IMG/VR virus record: IMGVR_UViG_3300042691_041259
Span: 138,506-202,505 of that record
DNA length: 64,000 bases
Direction: 5' to 3' (one strand)
From: a virus
Taxonomy: Duplodnaviria > Caudoviricetes
Under the pieces are notes generated by a model that saw only the letters and a program-made list of their open reading frames with translations, was not told the origin of the DNA and made no database searches. How positions within the stretch are numbered: position 1 is the first letter of the stretch; each line of letters begins with the position of its first letter. Both the position numbers and the translations under genes were made by a program. Shown piece after piece: positions 30,065-58,699 of the stretch.

Positions 30065-30090
30065 TTATATTCGCTCATAGAAAAAAGTTT
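30065..30090 (-). promoter_or_regulatory. Bipartite promoter-like motif AAAC-N14-GAATATAA
   Basis: One of eight copies, all upstream of minus-strand starts. Confidence 0.7.
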
Positions 30091-30094
30091 TTTG

Positions 30095-30140
30095 CAAAAA
30101 AAGAAAGCCCCCGATGATAGCGAGTCCCGGGGGCTTAGTA
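30095..30140 (-). terminator. Intrinsic terminator
   Basis: AAGCCCCCG...CGGGGGCTT stem followed by a T-run on the minus strand. Confidence 0.75.
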
Positions 30141-30176
30141 GTTTTGCAACTACAACGGTCCTAAGTCCGTATATTT

Positions 30177-31322
30177 TTATTTATTGACTTTCTTCCACTT
30201 CTCAAGTCCACGAATAACACCGTTATTGTCTTGAGCCCAGATTCCGAATCTCGCATTTTCGAAACCAAAAGTTCCTCCTTGTCCGGATCTCATTGAAACG
30301 TATAAAGCTGGCCAATACGGATCCGATTGCTTAAGTTCTAGACTACCACCTGTGATAGCAGGGTTATACATTGCGTGCCCGGTAGGCTTTATGGAATACC
30401 CGTTTTCAAAAGGCTCCCCAGCAGGAATAAATTCAATTGCACCTTGCATGACAACCTGAACGTTATCAGCGGACCACTCTTTATTGCTAGTGGTTGCTAG
30501 GTTTCCAAAGATTGCACGAATTCCAAGATCTATGTGTTCTGGCGGTATTACCACAGCAAATTCGTTCTCTGGCCAATTCTTAGCGTTGCTCCCAAATTTT
30601 TCCATGATTGCGTTTAAGAAATCTCTCACAAATGGATGATCTGCGCATTGGCTAATCCCGCCATACTGCTGAAAGTCTTTTGCACTCTTTCCATCTTTAT
30701 GAGATATGTAGATTGAAGGATCGCCTTTGATTTCCAATATAAAGTCCGCCTTTGGAACGCCTGACACTTTATCAGCCCCTTCCATTTCAACTTCACGCAG
30801 ACCAGATGAATTATACATTTCGCCTTTTACAACAAGCCTAACAGATTCATTAGGTCCCTTGAGCTTGTCAAATTGACTTTGAATGTTTTGAAGAGCAATC
30901 GTCTCTTTTTTAAGTGAGTCTTTAGGTGACCAAAAAATTGCTTCAGGCTTGTAACCCATAAGGAATGCCACAAAGCAGATTGCTTTTTCGAATTTGTTTG
31001 TTGCGTCCTCTCCGTTTTTCAAGGCTTCCATTTCAGCGTTTAAATCTTTTCCGCTTTTTGGAAATTCTTCTAGACGGCTACCATCTTTACTGCTTCTAAT
31101 TTTGATAGTTGTCGGGTAAACGGTTACGTAGGCTTCACCACTCAAAACGGCTTTTGCTCCTGGGGAAGAGAAATTCTCCCCAGTTACAATAACCTTTTCG
31201 ATGTTCTTGGTATCGCCGCTATACTTGAAGTCTTCGAAAGATCTTCTCAAGGTCTCGCCGTCAACACCTTCGTTTAGAATTGATTCATTAAGAATAAAAC
31301 TTTTGTAGTCTAGCAAGCCCAT
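30177..31322 (-). CDS. Putative PD-(D/E)xK-like nuclease with capsid-targeting-like N-terminus
   Basis: PKADF-x9-ISHKDG...FQQYGGIS resembles a restriction-endonuclease-fold active site. N-terminus LDYKSFILNESILNE. Confidence 0.5.
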   Translation of the reverse strand: MGLLDYKSFILNESILNEGVDGETLRRSFEDFKYSGDTKNIEKVIVTGENFSSPGAKAVLSGEAYVTVYPTTIKIRSSKDGSRLEEFPKSGKDLNAEMEALKNGEDATNKFEKAICFVAFLMGYKPEAIFWSPKDSLKKETIALQNIQSQFDKLKGPNESVRLVVKGEMYNSSGLREVEMEGADKVSGVPKADFILEIKGDPSIYISHKDGKSAKDFQQYGGISQCADHPFVRDFLNAIMEKFGSNAKNWPENEFAVVIPPEHIDLGIRAIFGNLATTSNKEWSADNVQVVMQGAIEFIPAGEPFENGYSIKPTGHAMYNPAITGGSLELKQSDPYWPALYVSMRSGQGGTFGFENARFGIWAQDNNGVIRGLEKWKKVNK

Positions 31323-31385
31323 TCTGTGTACTTTTCTTTTTCTTTTTATGGTTATTTTATCACAATATTGTTAATGACTCTATGA

Positions 31386-31604
31386 TCACTCTATGATTAA
31401 CTCCGGTCCGCCGATGTACTCGGTAATACCGGATTTTGCAACGGAACGAATTTCATAGTCAAAAGTGGTTCCGCGGAAGCGGTCACGCACCTTTGCTTGG
31501 GATTCCTCAATTGTTTCTGCATTTACGAGGTATGTCTCAGTAACGCTACGGAGTTTTCCGTCGTCCTCATAACTTGTCTTTACTCTTACTGTCCAATGTG
31601 CCAT
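31386..31604 (-). CDS. DUF4494-like protein
   Basis: W-x-V-x-V-(x)n-VTETYLVNAETIEESQAKV...YEIRSVAKSGITEYI matches the Bacteroidota DUF4494 pattern. Confidence 0.7.
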   Translation of the reverse strand: MAHWTVRVKTSYEDDGKLRSVTETYLVNAETIEESQAKVRDRFRGTTFDYEIRSVAKSGITEYIGGPELIIE

Positions 31605-31624
31605 ATATGATTGTTTTAGTGTTG

Positions 31625-31635
31625 CTATATTTATC
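31625..31635 (-). promoter_or_regulatory. Late-promoter-like motif GATAAATATAG
   Basis: Upstream of the DUF4494-like gene, overlapping the end of the PAP2 gene. Confidence 0.5.
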
Positions 31636-33436: not shown

Positions 33437-33442
33437 GAAATT

Positions 33443-37053: not shown

Positions 37054-37080
37054 TTATATTCGTTAAGTGATTAAGGTTTT
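37054..37080 (-). promoter_or_regulatory. Bipartite promoter-like motif AAAC-N14-GAATATAA
   Basis: Upstream of the DUF932-like gene. Confidence 0.7.
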
Positions 37081-38694: not shown

Positions 38695-38705
38695 TTTGTT
38701 TTAAT

Positions 38706-38730
38706 TTGATAGGATAAAAATAATACAAAA
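38706..38730 (-). promoter_or_regulatory. 25-bp conserved upstream element (copy 1)
   Basis: TTTTGTATTATTTTTATCCTATCAA on the minus strand, identical to 57586-57610. Confidence 0.7.
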
Positions 38731-38755
38731 AAACCCGAGATGAAAATCTCTGGGT
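38724..38755 (-). terminator. Intrinsic terminator
   Basis: ACCC-A-GAGAT/ATCTC-GGGT stem then TTTTTTTG on the minus strand. Confidence 0.7.
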
Positions 38756-38764
38756 CAATAGTTA

Positions 38765-39898
38765 TTAACAATTTGGGTAGCGTCGAACTAACCAATCAAG
38801 GTTTTCTCTTTCATCATAGTCAGAGTACCACCCACCGTTCTTTTTCATTCGAATGAGGTTATCAAAGTACTCCTCGTACATTCTTGCAACTACCTCGAGA
38901 GAGAAGTTATTCATGGCCCATTCACGGCAAGCTTTCGGACTGATTTTATCAATGTTTCGAGTGGCCCAAACAAACTGCTCCATAGTCCTGCATCGATAGC
39001 CAGTGATTCCGTGCAAATTGTTTTCTGCAAAGCACGCCCAATCTGATGTAATTACTGGAGTTCCCGAGAAGAGAGCCTCGATCATTACACCGCCAAAAGG
39101 TTCAGCATAATATGATGGAACATATAAGCCTTTTGCGCCGGCCAACAGTGCTTTTCTCTTTTCAACATCGGCGTAACCTACAAATTCAACATTGTCAGGT
39201 GGCGTTCCAAAAGTTTTTTCATAATCGCCCTGCCCCGCCACTTTCAGTTTTACGCCAGCTTTCTTTGCAGCAGTCACGGCTACTTGTATTCCTTTGGTTT
39301 CCACAATTCTGCCTAAATAGAGGAAGTAGTCTTCCTTTTCTTCGCGGTACTCAAAATCTGTAGGATCGAAATAGTTCGGAATCACCGCGTCAGTCCAAGA
39401 AGGATTCCCCCATTTCATTTTTTCGTAAGCGATATGAAGGACGCTGTATGATTCAAAGATACGATAAGGAGCAAAAAGCCCTGTGTGATAACCAATTCCA
39501 GGTTCTACTGGAATGAGGTCAGAATGCGCCTTTGAGATTTCTTCATGCCCAAATCCCCAAAAGCATAGGAGAAGATCGCCAGGCTGTTTATGCTTGGCGA
39601 TCTCCGCTATGGCATTTTTGTTGAACGTCTGTTGAGCTTTGTCATTAATGTTATGAACAAACTGGTTTCGTTTCCAGTCATATTCACCATAGGTTTCAAT
39701 TAAGATTTGATCATTAGTCACCGGTATGAGAACGTCGCATTCAGCGTCGGAGCGGTCATGGGCATACAGGTAGATCGTGTGCCCACGCTCTTTCATCATC
39801 TTACAGAATTTTACAACCTTTTGCGTATACGCGCAAGAGAGATATTCTTTAGATGTTACCGTGTGTGGTAGAGCAAGTACGTGAAACCTATGTTTCAT
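38765..39898 (-). CDS. GT-B glycosyltransferase (GT4-like)
   Basis: YLGRIVETKG, LYVPSYYAEPFGGVMIEALFSGTPVITSD (E-x7-E). Confidence 0.85.
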   Translation of the reverse strand: MKHRFHVLALPHTVTSKEYLSCAYTQKVVKFCKMMKERGHTIYLYAHDRSDAECDVLIPVTNDQILIETYGEYDWKRNQFVHNINDKAQQTFNKNAIAEIAKHKQPGDLLLCFWGFGHEEISKAHSDLIPVEPGIGYHTGLFAPYRIFESYSVLHIAYEKMKWGNPSWTDAVIPNYFDPTDFEYREEKEDYFLYLGRIVETKGIQVAVTAAKKAGVKLKVAGQGDYEKTFGTPPDNVEFVGYADVEKRKALLAGAKGLYVPSYYAEPFGGVMIEALFSGTPVITSDWACFAENNLHGITGYRCRTMEQFVWATRNIDKISPKACREWAMNNFSLEVVARMYEEYFDNLIRMKKNGGWYSDYDERENLDWLVRRYPNC

Positions 39899-40361: not shown

Positions 40362-40628
40362 TTAGAAAAAAATTGTCTTTTTATAGTGCTCGAGAGTATA
40401 CCACATTGCATTTGAAAGATGCGGGTCATTCTCAAATTTTGAGGTTGGTATTGCTACATAAATTTCTCCAAGAGAAGATTTGCCAATTGCTTGCATTCCA
40501 CAGCCTTCACAGAGAACTATTTCATATGTGTCCTCTTTAAGCTCTTTTGATATTGCTGTAACATCAATATCAGGGGTTGCAGCATCGCCAAACATTTTAA
40601 TGGCACAATATGTACAAAAATCAGCCAT
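40362..40628 (-). CDS. Small Cys-motif (possible Zn-binding) protein
   Basis: MADFCTYC...LCEGCG (two CxxC). Start reassigned to 40628. Confidence 0.55.
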   Translation of the reverse strand: MADFCTYCAIKMFGDAATPDIDVTAISKELKEDTYEIVLCEGCGMQAIGKSSLGEIYVAIPTSKFENDPHLSNAMWYTLEHYKKTIFF

Positions 40629-40914
40629 TGTAGTTTGTATAGTTAGGATCTCCTCCAGCGGTTGATGTAGAAACCCAGTATTTACTCGGGCCTTCATCTT
40701 TCTCATCTTCAAAGTGTTCTACCGACAGGAACTCTCCTGAATCCAGAACTCTCTTGTAAGTAACCCACGTACCTACGACTTCCATATAAATGGTGTCATC
40801 GTTTTCATGATAGTGAATCACCTGTCCTGGATCTGGAGAATCAAAGATCGTATCCATTGATGTTTTTAGATTGTCTTTCTTTGTAGAAATAAAGATTTCT
40901 ATTGGTTTTTCCAT
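40621..40914 (-). CDS. Hypothetical protein
   Basis: Start MEKPIEIF at 40914, just downstream of a promoter motif. Confidence 0.6.
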   Translation of the reverse strand: MEKPIEIFISTKKDNLKTSMDTIFDSPDPGQVIHYHENDDTIYMEVVGTWVTYKRVLDSGEFLSVEHFEDEKDEGPSKYWVSTSTAGGDPNYTNYNG

Positions 40915-40919: not shown

Positions 40920-40946
40920 TTATATTCAAGGATTTGAAAAAGTTTT
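40920..40946 (-). promoter_or_regulatory. Bipartite promoter-like motif AAAC-N14-GAATATAA
   Basis: Exact spacing of 14 nt. Confidence 0.7.
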
Positions 40947-42795: not shown

Positions 42796-43698
42796 TTATT
42801 GAATTAAAAAAATTGTTTGTAATGCATTTTTGCATGCCTGCTGGGTTATTTCCCCGCTCTTAACTATTATATCCATGGTTTCTTTAAACTTCTGTGCATC
42901 CGGAGTATATTCCAAACCATCAGGGTGTATAATGAAAAGCGGTTCTTTCATATAGAAGAAGTGCGGCGGATTTTCTTCGTGATTTTCGGAAAGGATTTTC
43001 TCGGCAAGATCAAAATGACGTTCATAGTAGTGAATGTTATCTGCGCAATGATAGTACTTTCCAAGTTGTAGATCTGGATACGTTTTACGCAAATTATGCC
43101 ACATTGTTTGCATTACCACTGCAAAGAACGGAACATCATAAGTAAAGCCATAAAACAAATCGTTAGAGCGCATTTGAACTTTCATATTCAGCTCGCCATT
43201 TCGGATCCAGAAGTTGAGGTACACGGTACAGACAAAATCTTTATTGCCTTCATACTGAAAGTCGGGATGACTAATAAAGGAAATTGCCTGGCGACTGTTA
43301 ATGTCTTTTACCAAGGATTCATATGCCCAAATCATTTGGTTTCCAAAGAGGCGGCTGCCATAGTTGGAATTGACGGTACCATCAGAATTCTGTAAGCCTT
43401 TCCAAAAGTTGGAAAAGTTATCAATGTAGTCCGTGTGACGCTCGCATGTCATATACCAGGCAAGTTCGCCTGCAAAGTATTTCCAATTAAACTCGCGATT
43501 TTGAAAATCCACAAGAGGAAACGTTGGACTGATTGTAAGCGTTTCCAGAAAAAGCTCACGGACTTTTTGTCCTCGAGGAGCTGATTCCATTCCTTCGGTT
43601 TTACATTTATGGAGAGTTTCTGCGAAAACGTCAGAAGCCGATGAAACCCCGGATTTCTTGAAGTATTTCGTCAAAATCTCTGTATTGGTCTTGATCAT
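42796..43698 (-). CDS. Thymidylate-synthase-fold dCMP hydroxymethylase-like enzyme (T4 gp42-like)
   Basis: KDFVCT catalytic Cys and MRSNDLFYGFTYD, with Asp at the position where dUMP-specific ThyA has Asn; H-x-YERH. Confidence 0.8.
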   Translation of the reverse strand: MIKTNTEILTKYFKKSGVSSASDVFAETLHKCKTEGMESAPRGQKVRELFLETLTISPTFPLVDFQNREFNWKYFAGELAWYMTCERHTDYIDNFSNFWKGLQNSDGTVNSNYGSRLFGNQMIWAYESLVKDINSRQAISFISHPDFQYEGNKDFVCTVYLNFWIRNGELNMKVQMRSNDLFYGFTYDVPFFAVVMQTMWHNLRKTYPDLQLGKYYHCADNIHYYERHFDLAEKILSENHEENPPHFFYMKEPLFIIHPDGLEYTPDAQKFKETMDIIVKSGEITQQACKNALQTIFLIQ

Positions 43699-44188
43699 TT
43701 ACTTTAATTGTGATTTTGTTGATGATTTTACTATTGTCTACAGCACTTTGAAAGGCTTCAATTTCTTCAACTTTCTTTTCAACCTTGTCAGAATATGACA
43801 GCCCATCGTCTTTCTTTACAATAAACTCTGCATCCGCAGTTAAGTGTATGAGGTAGACTTCTCTATCTTTATCCAGCGAATAACTCCGTTCCAATTGAGG
43901 AACCCAAGAGTCGGGATTGCTGTCACGATAGATTTTACCGTACACCAGCTCACCTAAGTGAGCGCGGTTCCAAAACAATACGTGATCTGAAAAATTGGCT
44001 CGAAGAAATATGAAATGAGCAAATTCATTATGAAATGTACTGATTTGCCACTTGGTCTTTTCGTCATTGGTAGTTCCATGTGGAAAAGACCAGTGCCTAA
44101 TGCTGTAATTTCTTAAGCCTTCTGAAAGTTTTTGAATGTAGCTGTCTTTTCCACAGCGATCCATTCCTTCAAAAATGATTAACTTCAT
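43631..44188 (-). CDS. dNMP/thymidylate kinase-like protein
   Basis: IIFEGMDRCGKDS P-loop; NRAHLGELVYG-x-IYR. Confidence 0.8.
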   Translation of the reverse strand: MKLIIFEGMDRCGKDSYIQKLSEGLRNYSIRHWSFPHGTTNDEKTKWQISTFHNEFAHFIFLRANFSDHVLFWNRAHLGELVYGKIYRDSNPDSWVPQLERSYSLDKDREVYLIHLTADAEFIVKKDDGLSYSDKVEKKVEEIEAFQSAVDNSKIINKITIKVNDQDQYRDFDEILQEIRGFIGF

Positions 44189-45718: not shown

Positions 45719-46920
45719 AAGAGTATTTTAGACGTTTGTTTGATCGGAGTATCTATCCGCTGTGCAATGTTGTCCTGTTTGAAGTAATCAACACCGCTGT
45801 CCTGCAAATGTCCAAAAAGCCATTTTATCACTTGCCCAGTCCAATCAGTTGCGGTATTTACCGGAACGTTTTGCGAGATTTGCTGATACCCTTCATGCGC
45901 CAAATTAAAGTTGCCGTCTATTCCCATGAGCCACATAAGTTCTTGTACGTTCATCCATCGGTGTTCGGTTGGATGCGTTGACAATTGTAAAGTTCTGCCT
46001 ACAACCGCGGTAATATCATTTGCATTAATGTGCGGAGTGCTATCCCATACTCTTTTGCGAGTTGCACGTTCTAATAATGCCAAGTATTTCTTGGACTTTG
46101 CATCCTCCCTATTTGCAAGGTAATCCATCGCCTTAGTAATTCTTTCCTGTTCACGGAAAATGTAAATAAGAATAGAACGGTTTCCTTCCAAGGCAGCTTC
46201 ATGTGGAGTTTTCTTTTCTTCCTGCGTAAGCCACTGGTACAGCGGATCTTCGGTCAGTGGATCCTTCATAAAGTACTTGTCGGTATACGGTCCAGCTGGT
46301 GTTCTTTCAATGTATGTTTCCAGCGGTAGCGTAATTCGGTTGCACCACTCCAGGATCGGAGCAGATTCAGCCTTCCAAAAGAAATAAAAAGATCGTACCC
46401 TGTTTTGCGGAATCCCATGCAGCGCTGTGGAAGTCTTGATCATACTGAAAGAATACCCGTGCTTCTTTCCAATTTCATAAAGTTTGTCCGCAACTTTCTT
46501 TCCTAATGCCGTATAGAGTCCAGGCGCGTTTTCACCCCAGAGAACTTTTGGCTTTACATTCTCGAGAACATACTCGGAAGACTTATACATCCATTCGTTT
46601 TGGATTGCATCCGCTCCACGAGCCTTTTCGCTACCTTCCTTTGTTGATGAATTCAATGCAGATAACCCTGCGCATGGACACAGACTTACTACCATGTCTA
46701 CGCCTTCAATTTCCTCATTAAAGGGACGGTCCCAAGCAATTCCGCTGTCTTCTATCAGGCCGTAAGGAATTTCTGGAAAGTTTGCCCGACAGTGACTGTC
46801 ATTGCTTTGGAAAGCATCGTAAGAGAGTATATACTCTGGATCTTTACCGGTCGCCCGTTTGGCTCCCAGGACCATCCCTCCAATGAGAGGTACTATAGCT
46901 GCATATTTAAAAGTTTCCAT
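45715..46920 (-). CDS. DNA cytosine-C5 methyltransferase-like protein (paralogue 2)
   Basis: CPCAGLS (motif IV), GENAPGL (VI), PQNRVRSF (VIII); motif I degenerate (IVPLIGG). Confidence 0.75.
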   Translation of the reverse strand: METFKYAAIVPLIGGMVLGAKRATGKDPEYILSYDAFQSNDSHCRANFPEIPYGLIEDSGIAWDRPFNEEIEGVDMVVSLCPCAGLSALNSSTKEGSEKARGADAIQNEWMYKSSEYVLENVKPKVLWGENAPGLYTALGKKVADKLYEIGKKHGYSFSMIKTSTALHGIPQNRVRSFYFFWKAESAPILEWCNRITLPLETYIERTPAGPYTDKYFMKDPLTEDPLYQWLTQEEKKTPHEAALEGNRSILIYIFREQERITKAMDYLANREDAKSKKYLALLERATRKRVWDSTPHINANDITAVVGRTLQLSTHPTEHRWMNVQELMWLMGIDGNFNLAHEGYQQISQNVPVNTATDWTGQVIKWLFGHLQDSGVDYFKQDNIAQRIDTPIKQTSKILF

Positions 46921-46921
46921 A

Positions 46922-48163
46922 TCAGAATAGACAAGTTGATTTTTCTTTCACATCAGCTTTTGTAGCTGAGAGATTGCTTTGTCGAAAAAACTTCTGACCT
47001 GAGGACGGAAGTTCTCCTTTAATGTATTTTACTACTTCCAAAGTCCAGTCTCGAGCAGTAGCGGTGGGTACATTTTGTGCAATGTGGTTCCACTGGTTTT
47101 TATCCAGGAGTTCAAAGTCATGAGGTAATCCCATAAGGTGCATATACTCGCGAATTGTAATGAACCGCTTTTCTTCGGGATGCGATCCACAGATCATGTT
47201 TTTAGAGATCACTGCATTAAAATGGTCGTTTCCTAATCTTGGAGAAACATCCCAAAAGCCTTTTCCTTCGGCAAGTTTCTTTTTAATGTGGTGTAATGAT
47301 CGAGCATCCACAGATCCAGGCAAAACTTTATCTGTGTACTCAATACATTCGTCCAGCCAGCCGTTCTTTACAATATACCAGTTCATGGTACGGCTGTCCT
47401 CGTCGGCCATCATTTCTTTCCAGGAAACTCCTTTAACCTCTTCCACAAACTTAATGATTGGGAGACCTTCAAGTTTCCAGTTGTTAAAAGTTTCCATTAG
47501 GGAAGCATCCTTTGGAACTTCTGACAGGTATTCACCAAGTTTCTTATGTTCACGATTGTAAGTGTTAAGAACTGGTGCGTACTCACTGTCCCAGAAGAAG
47601 TAGAATGTCCGTGAGCGTTCTTGTGGAATGCCATGGCGGATTGTAGAAGTTTTCATCAAACTCATACTGTAACCATTTTCTTGTGCAATCTCAAAAAGCT
47701 TGTCCACCACACCTTTACCAACTTCTCCATAGAGCCCTGGAGCGTTTTCTCCAAAAAATACTCTGGGTTTAAGAGTTCCCAAAACAAATCGAGCAGAACG
47801 ATACATCCACTCATTCTGTGCAGCGTCGGCTCCTCGCGATTTGCTGGTACCACCCTTTGAGTAATTAAGCATTGAAAGACCTGCACACGGACAAGTGGTA
47901 CTTACAAAGTCCAATCGATCCTCGGTCACCACCGGCAGGCCGCCGTCCTCATCAAGATTGATGTACGGAACATCTGGCCAATATGCCCTTAGGTGTTTTT
48001 CATTTTCCTGGAACCCATTGTAAGTGTACAAGGCAATTGGCTTATTACCAGTTGCCATTGAGTTTCCAATAGTAAACCCGCCAATGAGTGGCACTATTGA
48101 AGCATAACGGACTTCTCGTCCATCAATTAGAGCTCCAGCGCTTTCGTTATCGTTTCCTTCCAT
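46922..48163 (-). CDS. DNA cytosine-C5 methyltransferase-like protein (paralogue 1)
   Basis: IVPLIGG, CPCAGLS, GENAPGL and PQERSRTF; clearly paralogous to the adjacent gene. Confidence 0.75.
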   Translation of the reverse strand: MEGNDNESAGALIDGREVRYASIVPLIGGFTIGNSMATGNKPIALYTYNGFQENEKHLRAYWPDVPYINLDEDGGLPVVTEDRLDFVSTTCPCAGLSMLNYSKGGTSKSRGADAAQNEWMYRSARFVLGTLKPRVFFGENAPGLYGEVGKGVVDKLFEIAQENGYSMSLMKTSTIRHGIPQERSRTFYFFWDSEYAPVLNTYNREHKKLGEYLSEVPKDASLMETFNNWKLEGLPIIKFVEEVKGVSWKEMMADEDSRTMNWYIVKNGWLDECIEYTDKVLPGSVDARSLHHIKKKLAEGKGFWDVSPRLGNDHFNAVISKNMICGSHPEEKRFITIREYMHLMGLPHDFELLDKNQWNHIAQNVPTATARDWTLEVVKYIKGELPSSGQKFFRQSNLSATKADVKEKSTCLF

Positions 48164-49608
48164 TCTTCTAAAAAGTTGTAGTAATTAAAGTGTTCTTTGA
48201 GCTCGTGCATCACTTGAGCTTTTTCTTCAGGATGCGAGTCGTAGTAAGCAATTCTTTCAAGGATTTCTTCGTGGTTATGTACCACAATTTTTTCCTGAAG
48301 CGATGCAGGAATACCCGTGCAGTCTGGATCGTACCGATAGTCAAGTAGAGGGAACACATCCAGAGCAAGGTAAAGAGCTGGCCGCCAGTTAATGATATTG
48401 TAGCGAGCAATGTTCTTGGCCACGAGCGAGTACTCGTACTGCGCAAGTGTTCGGTTGAGTTCTTGTGTGTCGATATATCCACGGTAGTTTGGGTGATTTG
48501 AAACCGAATCCCAGAGTTCTGCAATAGTTGAGTCCTCAGTAATTCTTTTTTGCAACCTACCAATGCTTTTGCCTTCTTTTTTTCTTTCTGAAATGTGTCC
48601 ATCAACTTTTGGTGGAACATAGAGATCAATGCCTTCGCCTTGAAGATTACGTAGATATGTATTCCAGACATCTTTGCGGGTATTTTTGCTCAAAAACACC
48701 GTTCCATAGAAGATGAACTTATTCCGCTTTGTCTTGTCAATTTCCCATGGCTTTTCGTATAAAAAGTGTTGCATTTCTGCTACCGGGAAGGCATCAAAAT
48801 CTCGGGTTCCGCGGAAGTCCTTTGCTAGCGCAAAGTTTTTGTGAGATGGAGACAATGTATCAAATACTCGGTAAAACGATCCAGGATCCACCACAAAATA
48901 GTATGACTTCTTGAAGTTGCCACTAGTTTTTCCTTCTTCAATATACCAGGCTCCCAAGTTATACAGGAGGTTCTTCATCCAATAGGTAAAGGTGAGAATC
49001 CCTACATGATAGTCGTATCGTTTGCTAATTTTCTTACAATTTTCCAGAATTACTTCACGGATTCGTGGATCATTGCCAATGTAATCGTGGAATTCATTGT
49101 CGCCATGGATGTTCTCGTGTTGTAGAATTTCTTTTGGCGTTTCGCGTTTTACCCAGTAATCTTTCAGTGGCAGAAAAGCCCAGCGTTCATCAAGCCACAT
49201 TACATACTGTGGAAAAACTTTAGGCAATTCTCTTGAAAAGAATTCCTGCACCACATCCCGGTTATGTTCCCAAGAAAGGTTATCTTCCTCGGTCATTTCC
49301 GCCGCGCGCTTGAACCGCTTTTCTTTAATCTCTTCAAAGTCGTTTTGATTGATTGAATAGATGTTGGAATAACCCATGTCCACCAGTCGAGATGGATCAT
49401 TGTCAACGCCAACCCATACCAGGTTAAATCGTGGAGCAAGTACTTCCTGAATCATGTTGCGGTACCATCCAAGTATATGGTCCTGTTCTTTACACAGGAT
49501 AAGCTTGGAAAACACCAGGATCATTGTCTCCTTTTGAGGATCCAAAGGTTTTACGTTATATGACCGAACAAGTCTGAGTGGCTTTTCGGGTGCGTCAAAT
49601 AATGCCAT
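48127..49608 (-). CDS. DNA beta-glucosyltransferase-like GT-B protein
   Basis: C-terminal half FIFYGT...R, LDYRYDP, NHEEILERI...EWKETITKALEL parallels the T4 BGT C-terminus (recalled alignment). Confidence 0.6.
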   Translation of the reverse strand: MALFDAPEKPLRLVRSYNVKPLDPQKETMILVFSKLILCKEQDHILGWYRNMIQEVLAPRFNLVWVGVDNDPSRLVDMGYSNIYSINQNDFEEIKEKRFKRAAEMTEEDNLSWEHNRDVVQEFFSRELPKVFPQYVMWLDERWAFLPLKDYWVKRETPKEILQHENIHGDNEFHDYIGNDPRIREVILENCKKISKRYDYHVGILTFTYWMKNLLYNLGAWYIEEGKTSGNFKKSYYFVVDPGSFYRVFDTLSPSHKNFALAKDFRGTRDFDAFPVAEMQHFLYEKPWEIDKTKRNKFIFYGTVFLSKNTRKDVWNTYLRNLQGEGIDLYVPPKVDGHISERKKEGKSIGRLQKRITEDSTIAELWDSVSNHPNYRGYIDTQELNRTLAQYEYSLVAKNIARYNIINWRPALYLALDVFPLLDYRYDPDCTGIPASLQEKIVVHNHEEILERIAYYDSHPEEKAQVMHELKEHFNYYNFLEEWKETITKALEL

Positions 49609-51032
49609 TAGAACAATTTTGTTGCGTTTACTGCTGGAGCTGCTGCCTTAGGAGCGTTCCACTTGACAAATACCTGCTTGGCGCCATCAAGGTAGCTCAG
49701 TTGTTTTCCCATGACTTCCTGGATTCCAAGAGCCGGGATTTTGCCTTCTGCTTCAAACTTTGAAACTTCTTCAGCGTACACCGGACCACAAAGGCTGGAC
49801 AGCAATTCGCGTTCGTCGGTATATTTATTGGTGTCCTTTCCCATTGAAAAAATGTGTTCCAAAGTCTCGGGAATTATGCGGTCAGCATTAAATTCCTGAT
49901 AGGCCACGTCAAAAGAGGTCTGTTGGTAGCGCTTCATCATTGGAATGTTGTGACTCATTTCCACAATTTTTGCAGCCACTTCTTGTACATCAGTTCCATC
50001 GGAAAGAATACAGAAGTCTGGAATATCTGAAAATAGAGTACCATCAGAGATTCGATTATGTTCTGCCCAGTGACGGTCAAACAGTGGAACTGCTCCAGTA
50101 CCAATGATTTCAATTTGTGTATATTCCATGCGGTCTCCATAATTTTGTGGCTGCTTGGGTAGTGAATAAAAAGCAGAACCAAACATATGTGTTGCAAAGT
50201 GATTCAATGCAAAGTCGCGTGTGCATGGTTCCCATGCTTTTACTGGGCCATTACCATATACGCGATTAGGAATTGTTTTATTTACTTTGGTGTAAGTAGT
50301 CCATTCGTGATCAATGATCTGGAATTTGGCGCCGACTGATGCTTCAATACCGTGAATTTCTGTAACAAAGGTTGGATCTATTTGATCCGCCCAGTAACCA
50401 ACCTCAACAGTACGGTCAATGTTTTTCAAAGTAGACCAACGGCCAACATAGGTGAGTCCGCGTTTGCGGCTTTCAATAGGATACTTTTCTTTGTAAGCCA
50501 AGAGTTCCTCAAAGTTCATCCACATTTTGAAGCGACACATTCTTTCGTTAGCCTTTTTTGATGGCATCATGGTAATTACTTGCTGAGCCATCCAGGTATC
50601 AGTACCAAAGTGATATACTAAATCAGCATCATTAAGCATTGGAACGAGATAGCAAATCTTGTCAACGTTGGCTTTAGAGATCTCATGTACAAACATTACC
50701 TTTAAAGCTTGTAGTGGCTTGAAAAGATTATGATAGAACTTTTTAATTGCCTCGTGCTCGTACTTATTGTTAGGGTACGAATTGAAAATTACCAGGTCAT
50801 ATTTTTCTAAGGCTTGCTTAATTTCATCAACGTTCTCGTGAGTAAAAGATCGGTACGTCAGTTTATGAGAGCCTCTTCGAGTATAAAACTTTTCGTCATA
50901 CGAAAAGGTATCCAGTTGGCAACCCACTTTTTTGGACCAGAGCTCCAGCTCTGCTCCTACGCGTGTAACTCCACAGCCTTCAATTCCCTGGCCATAAACC
51001 ACGGCAATTTTCTTTTCTTTCCAATTAGTCAT
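49608..51032 (-). CDS. DNA alpha-glucosyltransferase-like protein (T4 AGT-like)
   Basis: GQGIEGCGVTR, NSYP, GRWSTLK, MEYTQIEIIGTGAVPLF correspond to T4 AGT motifs GRGIEGCGVTK, NSVP, GRTTTWK, LEYTHLELGACGTIPVF. Confidence 0.8.
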   Translation of the reverse strand: MTNWKEKKIAVVYGQGIEGCGVTRVGAELELWSKKVGCQLDTFSYDEKFYTRRGSHKLTYRSFTHENVDEIKQALEKYDLVIFNSYPNNKYEHEAIKKFYHNLFKPLQALKVMFVHEISKANVDKICYLVPMLNDADLVYHFGTDTWMAQQVITMMPSKKANERMCRFKMWMNFEELLAYKEKYPIESRKRGLTYVGRWSTLKNIDRTVEVGYWADQIDPTFVTEIHGIEASVGAKFQIIDHEWTTYTKVNKTIPNRVYGNGPVKAWEPCTRDFALNHFATHMFGSAFYSLPKQPQNYGDRMEYTQIEIIGTGAVPLFDRHWAEHNRISDGTLFSDIPDFCILSDGTDVQEVAAKIVEMSHNIPMMKRYQQTSFDVAYQEFNADRIIPETLEHIFSMGKDTNKYTDERELLSSLCGPVYAEEVSKFEAEGKIPALGIQEVMGKQLSYLDGAKQVFVKWNAPKAAAPAVNATKLF

Positions 51033-51037
51033 TTTGA

Positions 51038-52639
51038 TTAGTTATTTTGTGATTCTGATAGTTCTTTAATGAGTTGTTTTCCGCGAACAAACATGGCCTT
51101 TTGGCGGTCCGGATCATCAGCATGAAATGGTATTGCTGTGATAAGCAGCATTACAGCAAGACGCTTAAGAAGATACACTTCGTAACCATGAGACTCAAGT
51201 TCGGCTTCAAGAAACTCAGAAAGCTTCTCGGTACCAGGAACCCAGTTAATTTCAATGGTATCATTTTTATATTCATTCTTTCCCCATGTGTAGCGTTTAG
51301 CCATGATCATGGCATATCCACAGTAAAAGTCTTGTAAGAGTTTTCCCAAGTCATACCGCAAATCGCCTTGCGTCCAGGTTTCTCCAAAGGATCCTCGTGG
51401 ATCCACAAATTTTAGGCTGCCACTGTATGGATCATAAATAATGTTACCTAAGTGAGAATCTCCATGCATAACATGAGACCATACCGGATGCTTACACATC
51501 ATTAATGCGGTGTCTAGTAAAAAGTCTTCGTGCCAACGTGTTATCGGAACGTGCTGGCGAATATCAGCAATCCGTGCTTTGGTCTTTACAAAGTAATGTT
51601 CAAAGCAGTATTTTGAAGAGTCCTCAGGATTGATTGTTTTTTCTGGATAGTATGAAGCAAATACCTGATGATGTATTTCCAAGATCTTTCGAATGATCTC
51701 GTGCCAAACATCGGTGCGAAGGTTATCATAAACCAGGACTTCATTCAGAGCAGTTCCAGGCTCGAGAGACATTTTGAGAATTCCATAATCCGACTCCAGT
51801 ATTCTTGGACAGAAGAGAGCTTGCTCTTCATCCAGGCCTTTGAACCAACGCTTTTCCGCCTCAATCTTTTCTTCCTTCTTGGGATCATCTGACCACTTGG
51901 TGACAGTACCATAGAACGTGTCAACCTGTATGTGATTGAAAGACCTGGCGGATTTAGAAAGCAGACGAGCTTTTGATTGGTAATATGTATTAAGTTCTCC
52001 GCAGTCGTACCACTTATTTGTTTCAACAAGTTCCATTGCGCCTTCAGTCTTTACATAGGCCTCGAGTAGCGCGGCTATTTGATACTCGCCTTTGTGAGTG
52101 GGCCTTTTCATGCCTTTAGCCAAAGAACGATTGAATGCTTTGCGATTAACAAAATTATAGACGCCAATCAGCGCCTTGTTAGTTGGTACCTCAGTATCGG
52201 GCTTATCATACAGGTTTCCATCGCTGTCTACAAGACACCATCGATGTGGATCTGCCACATTATGAACCGCCAGGAAGCTGCGTTGATATGGAAACTCTTC
52301 TAAACAGATAGTGTCACCAAGCCAGATAGTGATGGCGTTTTCCGCATGCTCCAATGCATTGAATCCAACTTCAATTGCGTGCAGAGGGCCAAGCTTTTCG
52401 GCTTGCACCACGCATTTAATATCAAGTTTAGGATAAACACGTGCTACAAATTCAGCAATATCACCAATCTCGTTTTCCACTATGATTACTTCATTAACAT
52501 CAGATTCTTTGAATATGTGTTCAATTACATAGGAGATAAGCGGTCGGCCATTGACAGGTATCATGGCTTTACTTACGCCTTTTGATAAAGGCTTCATACG
52601 AGTGGCCAAACCGGCCGCTGGAATAATTACGCTTCTCAT
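51038..52639 (-). CDS. Sugar-phosphate nucleotidyltransferase fused to an aminoglycoside/choline-kinase-like domain
   Basis: IPAAGLATRMKPL...KAMIPV N-terminus; C-terminal HGDSHLGN and VDPRG kinase motifs. Confidence 0.85.
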   Translation of the reverse strand: MRSVIIPAAGLATRMKPLSKGVSKAMIPVNGRPLISYVIEHIFKESDVNEVIIVENEIGDIAEFVARVYPKLDIKCVVQAEKLGPLHAIEVGFNALEHAENAITIWLGDTICLEEFPYQRSFLAVHNVADPHRWCLVDSDGNLYDKPDTEVPTNKALIGVYNFVNRKAFNRSLAKGMKRPTHKGEYQIAALLEAYVKTEGAMELVETNKWYDCGELNTYYQSKARLLSKSARSFNHIQVDTFYGTVTKWSDDPKKEEKIEAEKRWFKGLDEEQALFCPRILESDYGILKMSLEPGTALNEVLVYDNLRTDVWHEIIRKILEIHHQVFASYYPEKTINPEDSSKYCFEHYFVKTKARIADIRQHVPITRWHEDFLLDTALMMCKHPVWSHVMHGDSHLGNIIYDPYSGSLKFVDPRGSFGETWTQGDLRYDLGKLLQDFYCGYAMIMAKRYTWGKNEYKNDTIEINWVPGTEKLSEFLEAELESHGYEVYLLKRLAVMLLITAIPFHADDPDRQKAMFVRGKQLIKELSESQNN

Positions 52640-53040
52640 GGGTTTATCAATCTTTTAAGAGTTACAGATTCATAGTCAACTGCATCGTTTCTTACAAAAT
52701 CTGATGGGGAAAGAGCACGGTCGTCAATGTAATAAACATTAGGACCCCATGGCTTTCCAATTTTTATATCATCATAAGGAACGTCGTGACGATGCAACCA
52801 GCTGAGAAGAACCGGCAAAACATTGAGACGGACTTGCTCCACATCACCGCTATAGGTTCGCATTCCGCGAGCCGTATGCAGGATGATTGTGTGACCTTCC
52901 TCTTTAAGTTTTCGGATCCGTTGAATCACTGGCCAAATCGGTCGAGCGTTTGCATAATCGTTACCGGATTTGCCATTCGGATACTTATCAGCCACGCAGA
53001 TAGTACCATCCACATCCATTACAAAAGTTGACTTTTCCAT
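52636..53040 (-). CDS. HAD-superfamily phosphatase (capsule-biosynthesis type)
   Basis: DVDGT, TAR, GKP and IDD motifs. Confidence 0.85.
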   Translation of the reverse strand: MEKSTFVMDVDGTICVADKYPNGKSGNDYANARPIWPVIQRIRKLKEEGHTIILHTARGMRTYSGDVEQVRLNVLPVLLSWLHRHDVPYDDIKIGKPWGPNVYYIDDRALSPSDFVRNDAVDYESVTLKRLINP

Positions 53041-53059: not shown

Positions 53060-53087
53060 TTATATTCAACACAGGTAAAAAAGTTTT
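53060..53087 (-). promoter_or_regulatory. Bipartite promoter-like motif AAAC-N15-GAATATAA
   Basis: Heads the DNA-modification operon. Confidence 0.7.
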
Positions 53088-53175
53088 ACTGTTTTGTATA
53101 TATGCAGCCAACTTTTTCATAGAATCACCATAGAGCAACTATCTATATTGCGTAAAGTTATACCTTATACACTTC

Positions 53176-53202
53176 AAAAGAATCACTCTATGTGATTCTT
53201 TT
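53176..53202. terminator. Perfect 11-bp AT-rich hairpin, possible terminator
   Basis: AAAAGAATCAC-TCTAT-GTGATTCTTTT just after the 53222 gene. Confidence 0.5.
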
Positions 53203-53384: not shown

Positions 53385-53672
53385 TTAGGTGGTTGGAGAA
53401 ATTCTTTGAAGCGGAAAGTAGAGCTGACTTCCGGCGGTAATTACCATGATGTTTTCCGGACACTCCTCGTTGTCAAAAATAGCTCGGGCTTGTACTCGAT
53501 TCATTCCTTGACAGTATGCACTGACTGCTGCCAACGCTGCTTGCGGATTGTCTGATTTTTCTTTTACCATTTCCTTGATCTTTGCCTTTTGGACTTTACC
53601 GATTTTTCCAATCTCTGGTCCTTCGTCATTGATGGATTGTACTCGCCCTGCTTGTGTTCTTTGAATAGCCAT
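53385..53672 (-). CDS. Hypothetical protein directly downstream of the sigma factor
   Basis: Start MAIQRTQAG at 53672, 1 nt after the sigma stop. Confidence 0.6.
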   Translation of the reverse strand: MAIQRTQAGRVQSINDEGPEIGKIGKVQKAKIKEMVKEKSDNPQAALAAVSAYCQGMNRVQARAIFDNEECPENIMVITAGSQLYFPLQRISPTT

Positions 53673-53673: not shown

Positions 53674-54291
53674 TTAGAATAGTTTATTTTTCTTTGAGAG
53701 TTTATGTAACATTTCTCGCCCTTTCTTAATCTTATACCAGACGTCTCCTGGTTTACAGCCAATTTCCTCCGCAATCTCTTCATTGGAAGCCTCCTTAAAG
53801 TATCTCATAGAGATTGCTTTAGATATATCTTCAGGCAGCTGGGAAACAAGAAGTCTTACCAATCGCGATATTTGTTCACGGTCAATCTCTGCATTCATAT
53901 CTACTTCATCAGCGACTGCAAAGGCTTCAGCATCTCGGACATTTGTTGGACGATCATAAGAATCTGCTTCCAGCCGCTTCTTTTTTCTAGGAATACCGCT
54001 AACATAATTATGAAGACATGCAATCATCCAGGTAAAGAACTTGGATTTTTCCGGATCATACATTCTTATCTTTACAAATGTGTTTCCCAGGACTGTCATT
54101 ACAATATCTTCTAGGTCTTCCACCTGTGCTTGCGGAAGTCGACGTTTAGCAGCCGTGTATAGGATTGGCTTATACTTTCGAATGAGGATATTGTAGGCTT
54201 TAGTATCTCCTTCAATAGCAGATTTTACCAGTTCTTTGTCTTCTTCATGCGTGGTATACGCTACTGACTTATAGCCTTTTCGTGTCCTCAT
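53674..54291 (-). CDS. ECF (group 4) RNA polymerase sigma factor
   Basis: Region 2 (ELVKSAIEGDTKAYNILIRKY...EDLEDIV...YDPEKSKFFTWM) and region 4 HTH (LPEDISKAISMRYFKEASNEEIAEEIG...VWYKIKKGREML); no region 3. Confidence 0.9.
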   Translation of the reverse strand: MRTRKGYKSVAYTTHEEDKELVKSAIEGDTKAYNILIRKYKPILYTAAKRRLPQAQVEDLEDIVMTVLGNTFVKIRMYDPEKSKFFTWMIACLHNYVSGIPRKKKRLEADSYDRPTNVRDAEAFAVADEVDMNAEIDREQISRLVRLLVSQLPEDISKAISMRYFKEASNEEIAEEIGCKPGDVWYKIKKGREMLHKLSKKNKLF

Positions 54292-54297: not shown

Positions 54298-54323
54298 TTA
54301 TATTCTTGGAAGATTAGTAGTTT
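54298..54323 (-). promoter_or_regulatory. Bipartite promoter-like motif AAAC-N14-GAATATAA upstream of the sigma gene
   Basis: GAAAC-TACTAATCTTCCAA-GAATATAA, 6 nt before the sigma ATG. Confidence 0.65.
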
Positions 54324-56628: not shown

Positions 56629-56640
56629 GCCTTATGTGTT

Positions 56641-56675: not shown

Positions 56676-57024
56676 CGAAATGACAAGCACGCCATTTCTT
56701 ACGCATGGCATGCAAGATCTTTTCCGAGAATTTTAAGGAGGTGTGGTTTTCGTTACAATTGTGAAGTAGCACCGCCTTCCGCATCGGAATAGTAAGTTTC
56801 CTCTTGTCCTGAGAATCTCCCGTTTGAGAGTTGACTTATGGCGTCGAACCTTTTACCTTTTCTAGCCGAGAAATAGCCGATCCGCCATCTTAGTTCCTTT
56901 TAAAGGGCGCTTTTGATTTGCGGAGGTGATTAGCCTTTTGTAGTTGTTATTGTTTTGGAGTAGCTCAATCAGCCGCTTCAGAACAGTGAGGATATATTAA
57001 AGAACGTGTATTTGTATCGGTTAC
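56642..57024 (-). ncRNA. Candidate Ro60-associated (Y-RNA-like) tandem hairpin array
   Basis: No ORF; own promoter motif and terminator; three stem-loop units each carrying GCTA(C/T)T(C/T)C, plus a 9-bp hairpin. Confidence 0.6.
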
Positions 57025-57029
57025 AGTTA

Positions 57030-57056
57030 ATATATTCTGAGAAATCAAATAGTTTC
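57030..57056 (-). promoter_or_regulatory. Bipartite promoter-like motif AAAC-N14-GAATATAT
   Basis: Just 3' of the tRNA, pointing into the non-coding array. Confidence 0.65.
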
Positions 57057-57075
57057 AGCACATATTAACTTTTTG

Positions 57076-57149
57076 TACTCCCGAAGGGATTCGAACCCCT
57101 GGCCCACAGATTAGAAATCTGTTGCTCTATCCAACTGAGCTACGGGAGC
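57076..57149 (-). tRNA. trnR: tRNA-Arg(UCU), no encoded CCA
   Basis: GCTCCCG/CGGGAGT acceptor stem, AGTTGGATAGAGC D-arm, ACAGA-TTTCTAA-TCTGT anticodon arm, GGTTCGAATCC T-arm. Confidence 0.95.
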
Positions 57150-57159
57150 GTGTGAGAAC

Positions 57160-57573
57160 CTAGTCCTCAATAAAAATGCCTTTTTCTGCGCGATAGACCA
57201 TCTCAGTCTTGTAAAGCTTAGAAGAGACTGAATCAGCCATTCCGCGATCGGCATTATAGTCAATGCAGGCCAGCACCCATGCATTTGACATTTTTTGTAA
57301 AGGAACCCAAGTAAGAGGTTCTGTGCCATCTTTGCCGCGACCGCCTCGACAGAAGTGCTCACGGATCTTCTCAAAATCTTCATCGGAGTAGACGCTGATC
57401 TCTTCGTACGGAGCATCTTCGTGGAAGTTCCTACGGAGGTAGTCGTTTCCACCGTCTACCATGTATTCCTTTCCATTTTTGTCGGTGTATGTCACATAAT
57501 CATGACGATGGCGAGAGACTAGCACAGTTCCATCTGGCGTGCGAATTTGATTAACAAGTATTTGCTTTTCCAT
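57160..57573 (-). CDS. Conserved phage hypothetical protein
   Basis: SRHRHDYV...YMVDGGNDYLRR motif common in phages. Confidence 0.7.
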   Translation of the reverse strand: MEKQILVNQIRTPDGTVLVSRHRHDYVTYTDKNGKEYMVDGGNDYLRRNFHEDAPYEEISVYSDEDFEKIREHFCRGGRGKDGTEPLTWVPLQKMSNAWVLACIDYNADRGMADSVSSKLYKTEMVYRAEKGIFIED

Positions 57574-57585
57574 ATTGGTTTATTA

Positions 57586-57610
57586 TTGATAGGATAAAAA
57601 TAATACAAAA
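57586..57610 (-). promoter_or_regulatory. 25-bp conserved upstream element (copy 2)
   Basis: Identical to 38706-38730. Confidence 0.7.
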
Positions 57611-57640
57611 GGCTCAAAGAAAAAAATTCTTGAGCCTTTT
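57607..57640. terminator. Intrinsic terminator (possibly bidirectional)
   Basis: AAAAGGCTCAA/TTGAGCCTTTT inverted repeat. Confidence 0.75.
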
Positions 57641-57650
57641 GTTGTTAACA

Positions 57651-58667
57651 TTATTTTTGTCGTACCGTCTTACTAATCTTTCCATCTTTAAACTCAAGTC
57701 CCATTTGCATGGGAAGAGACTGATTATGCCAGTTGATAGTAGTGTCGCAGGGACCTAATGTATCTCCGTGATTGAGGTGAGCTTGGACAGCAGGCTGCGC
57801 AACATAAATGGTAATGAAATTTCCATTTCCTAGTCGATGGCAGATGGCAACTCTTTTTGATTCTTCTTCTGCGTCCTCTTCATCGTCTACTGGATCAGTA
57901 ACTACCACATTAACATGAATAATTTGCTCAAATGTTGAAGTGTTTCCACAGCCATCAGTAGCTGTATAAACTCTAATGTAGCTGTTTCCAGAAACTTCAG
58001 TATCTACATATGTAAAAAAGATTGGTGATGAACAGGGTTCTGAAGCGGTAGCAAATAAGGTGTCCAGGCTAGTGCCTTCGTCAACCTCAATATAGATTTC
58101 TCCACTGATTGTTGGCGGAATAGTATCTACTGCTATAATAATTTCCGACGCGTTAGAAGTATTTCCGGATTCGTCATACGCCGTCCAGAGACGAGTATAA
58201 ACTGTTTGACATGGATTAGACCCATCTACAAAGTCTTGGTACATTAGGACTGTCCAGCCGCAATTGTCAACTGCCATTGCTTGCGTAAATTCTGGGTTAT
58301 TCCAGCAAGCAATTGTTTGTGTTGGCATTGGCGTAAATACAGGAGGCGCCTCATCTACTACGTGAATAATTTGTGTTTCTACCAGGCCGTTTCCTGCATT
58401 GTCAAACGCTCGGTAAATTCTAAAAACATCATAGACGTTTGAAATTCCACTTTGAAAAATTTCTTCAAGAAATACTACCTCTACGCTATCGTCACAATTG
58501 TCTTGGATGATAGGACGAATTGCAGAAAGATCATGATCACAACTAACGGTGATCTCAGGCTGAAAGTCTACGATGTACGGATTAGTAACATCATTAGTAC
58601 AGTCAGACTGCGCGTTTACAAAAAGTGTTAGGGTGGATAAAACTAGTGTTAGGATTTTGTTTTTCAT
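57651..58667 (-). CDS. Secreted HYR-like repeat protein
   Basis: Signal peptide MKNKILTLVLSTLTLFVNA-Q. Three DNC...R-x-[YW]-x-A-x-D-x-x-GN...D-x-x-PP repeats; C-terminal AICH...AHLNHGDTLGPC motif. Confidence 0.75.
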   Translation of the reverse strand: MKNKILTLVLSTLTLFVNAQSDCTNDVTNPYIVDFQPEITVSCDHDLSAIRPIIQDNCDDSVEVVFLEEIFQSGISNVYDVFRIYRAFDNAGNGLVETQIIHVVDEAPPVFTPMPTQTIACWNNPEFTQAMAVDNCGWTVLMYQDFVDGSNPCQTVYTRLWTAYDESGNTSNASEIIIAVDTIPPTISGEIYIEVDEGTSLDTLFATASEPCSSPIFFTYVDTEVSGNSYIRVYTATDGCGNTSTFEQIIHVNVVVTDPVDDEEDAEEESKRVAICHRLGNGNFITIYVAQPAVQAHLNHGDTLGPCDTTINWHNQSLPMQMGLEFKDGKISKTVRQK

Positions 58668-58672
58668 ATTTT

Positions 58673-58699
58673 TTATATTCAAATATGAAACAAAGTTTT
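58673..58699 (-). promoter_or_regulatory. Bipartite promoter-like motif AAAC-N14-GAATATAA
   Basis: 5 nt upstream of the HYR protein ATG. Confidence 0.7.

Follow-up and report, generated by a model that had tools for sequence, protein, structure and literature searches.

Which sigma factor reads a promoter-like motif that recurs ahead of phage genes is the question raised by the 64,000-nt stretch analysed here (the window), the last 64 kb of the 202,505-bp viral record G000 (IMG/VR record IMGVR_UViG_3300042691_041259; CheckV completeness 66%). An initial annotation had described eight copies of AAAC-N14/15-GAATATAA, always just before a minus-strand start, as promoters of an extracytoplasmic function (ECF) sigma factor encoded in the window, sigma-1, which was thought to regulate its own gene and to drive a middle transcription programme in place of the MotA/AsiA system of T4. 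Here the motif is termed class II, to set it apart from two further elements, class I and class III, that are described below. At roughly even odds (about 0.5), the ~26 class II sites of the genome are read by host core RNA polymerase together with a second ECF sigma factor, sigma-2, which is encoded outside the window; as judged from sequence comparison, sigma-2 is more likely than sigma-1 to be the driver. Coordinates are those of the window unless given as genome or locus positions.

Within the window, seven exact class II matches are found against 0.04 expected (100 dinucleotide shuffles, the largest giving 1), all of them on the minus, that is gene, strand. The proposed eight-site motif is upheld, far above shuffled sequence, as these seven sites and one variant at 57030. 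An ATG follows 5-21 nt downstream on the minus strand for seven of the eight, and it is to these that a position just before a start applies; the eighth opens a stretch free of open reading frames (ORFs). The sites, with the tRNA gene adjoining the variant, are as follows.

30065-30090, minus strand: class II site (AAAC-N14-GAATATAA) before a 79-aa ORF with its ATG at 30043, 21 nt downstream; an orthologous copy is kept in the relatives G001, G004 and G005.
37054-37079, minus strand: class II site before the gene of a 377-aa protein, ATG at 37035, 18 nt downstream; orthologous copies in G001 (as the variant GTATATAA), G004 and G005.
40920-40945, minus strand: class II site before a 97-aa ORF (40621-40914), near-leaderless with the ATG 5 nt past the motif.
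44206-44232, minus strand: class II site with N15 before a thymidylate-kinase-like gene (43631-44188), ATG 17 nt downstream; orthologous copies in G001, G004 and G005.
53060-53086, minus strand: class II site with N15, heading a HAD phosphatase gene (ATG 53040) and an ~8-kb DNA-modification block (44903-53040); a hairpin lies just upstream at ~53170-53198, and orthologous copies occur in G001 and G004.
54298-54323, minus strand: class II site adjoining the stop codon of the Ro60/TROVE gene, with the ATG of sigma-1 (54291) 6 nt past the motif.
57030-57055, minus strand: class II variant GAATATAT (one base changed), between a tRNA-Arg and an ORF-free stretch of ~380 nt.
57075-57149, minus strand: tRNA-Arg (anticodon tct), directly upstream of the 57030 site.
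58673-58698, minus strand: class II site with an ATG (58667) 5 nt past the motif, before the gene of a 338-aa HYR-domain protein with a signal-peptide-like start.

Indeed, DNA-modification genes and the ECF sigma gene, both named as targets in the initial annotation, are located behind the 53060 and 54298 sites, and the RNA region that it placed behind the motif would correspond to the ORF-free stretch at 57030.

The signal extends over the entire genome. The expression [AG]AAC-N14/15-[GT][AT]ATATA[AT] occurs 26 times on the minus strand of the 202.5-kb record, which carries almost all of the genes, and not once on the plus strand (shuffle mean 2.0), while a spacing profile of AAAC-Nx-TATAA yields 20 matches at N17 and 9 at N18 on a background of ~2. 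Aligned, the sites return tAAAACTTTTT as left half and tGAATATAAA as right half with an uninformative spacer in between, overall (t)(G/A)AAAC-TTTTT...N...(t)GAATATAA. The AAC of the putative -35 element holds 2.0 bits at every position; the A/T-rich -10 block, starting ~16-17 nt after this AAC element and the T-tract, holds 1.4-2.0 bits per position.

In B. subtilis ECF promoters, the -35 element and its T-tract read tGAAACnTTTt (PMC5758882), a form that the left half matches, so that class II has the AAC-bearing -35 and the downstream T-rich stretch of an ECF promoter; a CGT core is missing from its -10, where GAATATAA is found. The motif is unlike the MotA box of MotA-dependent middle promoters, and the Bacteroidota sigma-A arrangement (TTTG at -33, TAnnTTTG at -7, ~19-21 nt past the TTG) is absent from it. 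It also departs from T4-type late promoters, having a conserved -35 box and avoiding the structural block. With its single-spacing peak, its AAC -35 plus T-tract and its one-strand bias, the motif stands as the bipartite ECF-like promoter class that had been claimed, and these features make its sites, in all likelihood, promoters.

Across G000, class II sites are separated from the ATG by 3-46 nt: approximately half end 3-8 nt before it and the remainder 17-46 nt, therefore implying nearly leaderless mRNAs for the former. The leaders ahead of G000 start codons are A/T-rich and without a Shine-Dalgarno sequence. As only about 5.5% of Flavobacterium mRNAs are leaderless (PMC9723704), near-leaderless class II mRNAs, for instance from 40920, 54298 and 58673, would be unusual for Flavobacterium-like hosts. 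In G005, the distances to the ATG are more spread out than in G000.

Conservation follows the two boxes rather than the sequence between them. The topoisomerase gene provides a footprint: ahead of it, 13 of 14 IMG/VR loci retain the two boxes around a variable spacer, the 14th being without upstream sequence. For at least eight genes, the orthologues in G001, G004 and G005 likewise have a class II site in front of them. A further 24 related contigs, which bear sigma-2, yield 84 class II matches versus 9 in a reversed control, and within a contig these fall almost exclusively on a single strand. Altogether the element is retained at orthologous positions in about 40 related contigs, its spacer varying freely. 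The topoisomerase footprint, the orthologous sites and the enrichment in the 24 contigs make class II very likely a functional bipartite DNA element.

The genes behind it point to a role. G000 has a T4-like core by PHROG assignment (clamp loader, DnaB-like helicase, topoisomerase II, gp32-like single-stranded DNA-binding protein, dUTPase and a gp55-like late sigma), and its gp52-like protein is ~28% identical to counterparts of Aeromonas T4-like phages; a T4-like jumbo phage with a Bacteroidota host is the best explanation. Megablast of 12 kb against INPHARED returned no cultured close relative, tblastn with sigma-1 gave matches at ≤29% identity only, and an Rfam scan found nothing beyond tRNA. 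Class II precedes the clamp loader, the DnaB-like helicase, topoisomerase II, dUTPase, the gp32-like protein and the thymidylate-kinase-like gene, as well as the HAD phosphatase with the glycosyltransferase/C5-methyltransferase block, sigma-1 and several small genes. The structural block (genome 108-168 kb) is free of class II sites and has GATATATAG boxes. From this distribution, with replication and nucleotide genes downstream and none from the structural block, we infer a middle-type class; that class II marks non-structural genes (replication, nucleotide metabolism, DNA modification) supports this part of the earlier proposal.

A Pfam scan of the whole genome detected the second ECF sigma factor, sigma-2, a 207-aa protein encoded at genome 27021-27644, ~111 kb upstream of the window. 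It comprises the PF04542 (E 2.2e-12) and PF08281 (E 4e-12) domains, that is, domains 2 and 4 of the sigma fold, displays a canonical region 4.2 helix, and matches TIGR02985, SigW and TIGR02937 in NCBIfam. Orthologues in 25 IMG/VR contigs are 51-79% identical, with the 4.2 helix invariant. The best PDB match is SigW (5wuq), the sigma-2 helix NTVRTRIRKGRE aligning to GTVKTRIHRGRE of SigW, and SigW reads TGAAAC (PMC5758882). Sigma-2 and sigma-1 share 25% identity, and their recognition helices differ at four positions. Directly before sigma-2 and all of its orthologues there is a class I unit (TTGTTAATAAC...TTT(G/T)), conserved in 15 relatives. Placed behind what appears to be a host-type promoter, sigma-2 should therefore be made before class II needs it.

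The distribution of the two sigma factors among relatives bears directly on the choice between them. From 23.7 kb to the end of G000, G005 (238,475 bp, CheckV 84%) runs collinear with that genome, and it contains orthologues of sigma-2 (57.5% identity) and gp55 (66%). Sigma-1 was found there neither by protein search nor through either Pfam sigma domain, and the syntenic Ro60-to-HAD interval is filled by sugar-modification genes. Nevertheless, G005 displays the same-looking motif, with 26 class II sites on the gene strand and 4 on the other (shuffle mean 6.9), kept before orthologous genes. Likewise, the contigs G011 and G012 include the Ro60 locus, have 9-10 class II sites each and lack sigma-1, and none of 45 further related contigs, all fragments, has sigma-1, the motif being present in 21 of the 24 sigma-2 contigs. 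Conversely, sigma-1 is present in G002 and G003 (58-60% identity, with the DNA-reading helices nearly the same), and neither phage is enriched in class II (9 vs 5.9 expected, and 1 vs 2.7). In G017 (250 kb, 88% complete), both phage sigmas are missing and class II is not enriched (1 match vs 4 in the control). The claim that the window sigma reads class II is not sustained by G005 on the one hand and G002 and G003 on the other. The initial annotation had itself named retention of the motif in relatives without this sigma as the observation that would speak against it, and as far as the data allow, this is what G005 presents.

Sigma-1 and the ORF behind it are arranged as follows.

53674-54291, minus strand: sigma-1, a 205-aa ECF-type sigma factor with Pfam matches to Sigma70_r2 (PF04542), r4_2 (PF08281) and Sigma70_ECF (PF07638) only.
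53385-53672, minus strand: 95-aa ORF, beginning 2 nt past the sigma-1 stop codon.

The assignment of this gene to the ECF type was correct: besides the Pfam domains, it scores 70 bits against TIGR02937 (cut-off 42.9), and it has domains 2 and 4 without regions 1.1 and 3, as in ECF group 4. Its 4.2 helix however lacks the canonical form of GAAC/AAAC-reading sigmas, with DVWYKIKKGRE opposite TVRSRIFRARE of AlgU/RpoE. The protein, patchily distributed, has 147 metagenomic homologues at ≥50% identity and is 58-68% identical across relatives, even in G002, where DnaB is 33% identical. The orthologue in G001 likewise has a class II site in front of it, and those in G004 and G003 have variants of the site; it is absent before sigma-1 in G002, L001, L004 and L005 (L003 being the G002 locus). 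In these four, sigma-1 is coupled by overlapping stop and start codons to an upstream 318-aa protein (L003:2045-3612 in G002), which from its YFGGK and DPPY motifs looks like a Dam-like (adenine) methyltransferase. As sigma-1 of the window sits between Ro60 and the cytosine-modification block, DNA-modification genes neighbour it both here and in distant relatives. The 95-aa ORF could be a partner or anti-sigma factor of sigma-1; G002 carries a different neighbour in its place, and no anti-sigma factor was identified in the phage, the 95-aa ORF not having been searched against families. Dyads or 8-mers specific to sigma-1, upstream of genes in sigma-1-bearing genomes and absent from G005, did not rise above noise, and the dyads AAAC-N12-TTGGTC (G002) and AAAC-N17-GGTGCT (G003) were rejected as promoters, being coding repeats. 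Considering the second ECF sigma, G005 and the non-canonical helix, autoregulation by the window sigma is disfavoured, and the best reading of sigma-1 is that of an accessory middle gene, a target of class II and not its driver. G003 additionally encodes a 296-aa sigma with a primary-sigma-like N-terminus (G003:C1:53300-54187, locus L060; Sigma70_r2, E 5.6e-18), which brings the sigma-70-family genes of that phage to at least three.

Several observations weigh against assigning class II to sigma-2. The -10 block GAATATAA lacks the CGT typical of SigW/RpoE-type promoters, and the likeness of sigma-2 to SigW is therefore uninformative on how the -10 is read. The residues of the 4.2 helix that contact bases are presumably those of the RpoE sigma-4/-35 DNA crystal structure, which we take as a lead only. 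G002 shows a relaxed AAAC-N17/18-TATAA signal (16-17 matches vs a background of ~7) and G003 about a dozen GAAAC...TATAAT sites, picked by eye; both phages have sigma-1, yet a sigma-2-like protein of just 23-32% identity. G005 is not closed, as an identical overlapping contig runs 1.27 kb past its start and does not reach the other end, and with 84% completeness sigma-1 could therefore lie in the missing part; the remaining sigma-1-negative contigs are all fragments. In addition, the position of sigma-1 directly behind class II in G000 and G001, and behind variants in G004 and G003, is the usual layout of ECF autoregulation. The RNA data consist of low-depth contigs from two freshwater-sediment metatranscriptome runs, from which transcript starts are not readable; DNA carry-over is possible and depth gaps are meaningless, so that they support neither side.

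That sigma-1 itself recognises the class II sites, among them its own promoter at 54298, after being bootstrapped by read-through from the class I unit at 57650, has in our view only a slim chance. Autoregulation is the ECF norm, and the class II site 6 nt before the sigma-1 ATG, its counterparts in G001, G004 and G003, the high conservation of the protein and the relaxed signal of G002 all fit such a circuit. It must however accommodate the 26 sites at orthologous positions in G005, the Ro60 loci of G011 and G012 and the fragmentary contigs, all without sigma-1, nearly unchanged helices in G002 and G003 without motif enrichment, and a 4.2 helix departing from TV(R/K)(S/T)RI. A shared assignment, where both ECF sigmas read class II with overlapping specificity and sigma-1 is a booster or subset reader, is slightly more plausible but still improbable. 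Overlapping regulons are well documented for SigM, SigW, SigX and SigV of B. subtilis (PMC5758882), both phage proteins are generic RpoE/SigW-like by NCBIfam, and sigma-1, itself a class II gene, could provide feed-forward amplification; against this, the two proteins are only 25% identical with recognition helices that differ at four positions, no subclass of sites separates by N14/N15 spacer or by GAAAC/AAAAC, and the motif looks alike in G005.

The reader might also not be a phage sigma at all, being instead a host alternative sigma, or host sigma-A with a MotA-like phage activator at the AAAC box. We consider this unlikely, though the least so of the alternatives. Many phages, probably with a host group in common, conserve the motif, both sigma-promoter pairings are deduced from sequence, and T4 middle promoters do employ sigma appropriation. 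On the other hand, the motif is unlike the Bacteroidota sigma-A -33/-7 consensus, the reported Flavobacterium ECF motif has a CGT -10 element (PMC9723704), AsiA and MotCF domains were not found (in a search without positive control), and G017, having neither phage sigma, lacks enrichment. Finally, class II could be a translation, RNA-processing or recombination signal. With 3-8 nt between motif and ATG, approximately half of the sites in G000 are near enough to act in translation initiation, and conserved cassettes could mediate gene shuffling. Such a role is nevertheless very improbable given the bipartite build with fixed spacing and free spacer, the ECF-like -35 with T-tract, sites just past terminator-like hairpins, the variable distance to the ATG (3-46 nt) and the site that heads an ORF-free region.

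Reading by sigma-2 presupposes an early supply of that protein, for which class I is the candidate source. Present in ~12 copies in G000, a class I unit is made up of TTGTTAA(T/C)AAC, an nA(G/A)ATTTT box 19 nt past the TTG, the leader GTATTATTTTTAT(A/C)CTATCAA and the ATG. The cassette measures ~77 nt and often overlaps a hairpin, and its TTGTTAA(T/C)AAC often gives the stop codon of the upstream gene.

38695-38770, minus strand: class I unit, TTGTTAATAAC followed by nAGATTTT 19 nt past the TTG; ATG at 38694.
57574-57650, minus strand: class I unit preceding the DUF7695 gene (57160-57573); sigma-1, on the same strand, follows ~3.3 kb downstream.
Genome 1507, 1916, 14270, 16566, 20670, 21474, 27719, 49583, 52008 and 81728: ten further class I copies (L053-L057).

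The arrangement TTGTTAATAAC...(T/A)AnnTTT(G/T) is kept in 15 related loci, one of which has TAAATTTG 19 nt past the TTG. It fits the Bacteroidota sigma-A -33/-7 promoter consensus, TAnnTTTG (PMC9723704), and class I is read as an early class recognised by host sigma-A. Upstream of genes, scans for sigma-A promoters of Bacteroidota and sigma-70 promoters of E. coli gave no convincing candidates until a second reading of the class I units. The unit has the appearance of an early promoter for host sigma-A joined to a terminator, and recalls the mobile early-promoter/stem-loop cassettes of T4-type phages.

Class III is a box, GATATATAG or GATAAATA, without a -35 element, that precedes structural genes.

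14241-14249, minus strand: class III box GATATATAG before a 1623-aa structural gene.
22756, 27134, 35838 and 63602, minus strand, and 27159 and 59161, plus strand: further class III boxes.

It fits the T4 late type by sequence, and the gp55-like late sigma is encoded at genome 60436-60873 (phrog_234, E 1.9e-13).

Further elements were noted in the course of this survey. An element of ~60 nt, ...TCTTCTGATAC...TTTTATACA(C/G)CT.T.G.CAAAAAGTTT..., has three intergenic copies in G000, with one match each in G001 and G005 and two in G002.

L054:1440-1520, L057:6470-6550 and L059:16080-16160 (genome ~21504, 86534 and 136143), minus strand: copies of the ~60-nt element.

Behind one class I unit, a 146-aa protein (L054:955-1395, minus strand) starts ...NRKARHDYHFLEEYEAGAALLG and is putatively SmpB-like, as judged by eye; SmpB is the tmRNA-binding protein. 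The ORF-free region next to the tRNA-Arg is also spanned by a 429-nt metatranscriptome contig (run X10, freshwater sediment), which covers 56681-57109 with 2 differences, including the 57030 site and part of the tRNA, and represents RNA or carried-over DNA. The apparent lack of ORFs in the first 8 kb of the window is due to one 2820-aa ORF (genome 138154-146616, minus strand) that fills positions 1-8111 and crosses the left edge.

Aggregated, the three classes suggest a temporal order. Host sigma-A would read class I (TTG-N19-nAnnTTT(G/T) plus the conserved leader), giving early sigma-2. Sigma-2 would then turn on class II and with it the replication, nucleotide-metabolism and DNA-modification genes and the ORF-free RNA region, and also sigma-1 in phages having it. 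The gp55-like sigma would finally read the late boxes GATATATAG. More tentatively, and at less than even odds, MotA/AsiA appropriation would be replaced in T4-like jumbo phages of Bacteroidota by a relay of host sigma-A, sigma-2 and the gp55-like sigma, with sigma-1 as an accessory fourth in some lineages, perhaps reading another promoter class and possibly on modified DNA. AsiA (PF09158) and MotA C-terminal (MotCF, PF09010) domains gave no match in G000 or G005, an absence that is weak evidence because no control-set genome matched either family. Of the proposal that the programme stands in for MotA/AsiA, the middle-type class and the lack of detectable MotA/AsiA (without positive control) are retained, while the window sigma as its driver is not.

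SPO1 and phiEco32 provide known examples of phage sigma cascades, and for the control of middle genes by sigma appropriation the textbook case is T4. There, MotA/AsiA appropriate the host sigma at promoters with a MotA box (TGCTT at -30), and late transcription relies on gp55, gp33 and gp45 at TATAAATA. G000 resembles T4 in having replication and nucleotide genes behind a middle-type element, structural genes behind the -10-only box GATATATAG and a gp55 homologue; it differs in the lack of a MotA box, and in a predicted replacement sigma rather than a remodelled host sigma. The sigmas of phiEco32 (gp36) and Salmonella phage 7-11 are distantly ECF-like and use the promoter TAATGTATA, an extended -10 with no recognisable -35; once the host sigma has served the early phase, sigmas of this type redirect the core RNA polymerase of the host to phage promoters of the middle and late classes (PMC4331800, PMC5333181). 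Unlike these phages, G000 has a strong -35 AAC box, a separate gp55-like late sigma and two ECF sigmas. In SPO1 (gp28 for middle, gp33/34 for late genes), a phage sigma replaces the host sigma and a later factor reads the late promoters (PMC13401047). The likeness to G000 lies in the temporal cascade, an early phage sigma followed by a further late factor; the sigma families and promoters are however unrelated, the late tier of G000 is of T4 type and sigma-1 is an extra accessory. With the B. subtilis SigW and E. coli RpoE promoters (tGAAACnTTTt-N-CGTA and GGAACTT-N-TCTGA), class II shares the AAC -35, the T-tract and the fixed spacing (~16 nt between AAAC and the core of the -10), and the sigmas share the two-domain build (domains 2 and 4), SigW being the best solved-structure match of phage sigma-2. 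The -10 of class II is nevertheless an 8-nt A/T-rich GAATATAA and not CGT(A/C), and the sigma is phage-encoded and would drive essential replication genes, not a stress regulon. Thus, phiEco32 gp36 and SPO1 are closest in logic, and the B. subtilis ECF promoters in promoter form. On ECF sigmas in T4-like phages of Bacteroidetes, no publication came up in a literature search.

The choice of sigma-2 over sigma-1 matters to anyone planning a sigma-promoter pairing experiment, and with ~26 promoters per genome, conserved across ~40 contigs, class II offers a clean set for studying how ECF sigmas recognise an A/T-rich -10. If the proposed reading is true, the phages would supply compact, probably orthogonal sigma-promoter pairs for Bacteroidota genetics, and the T4 programme would have been rebuilt via ECF sigmas, for hosts with a very different primary sigma, in a widespread uncultivated clade.

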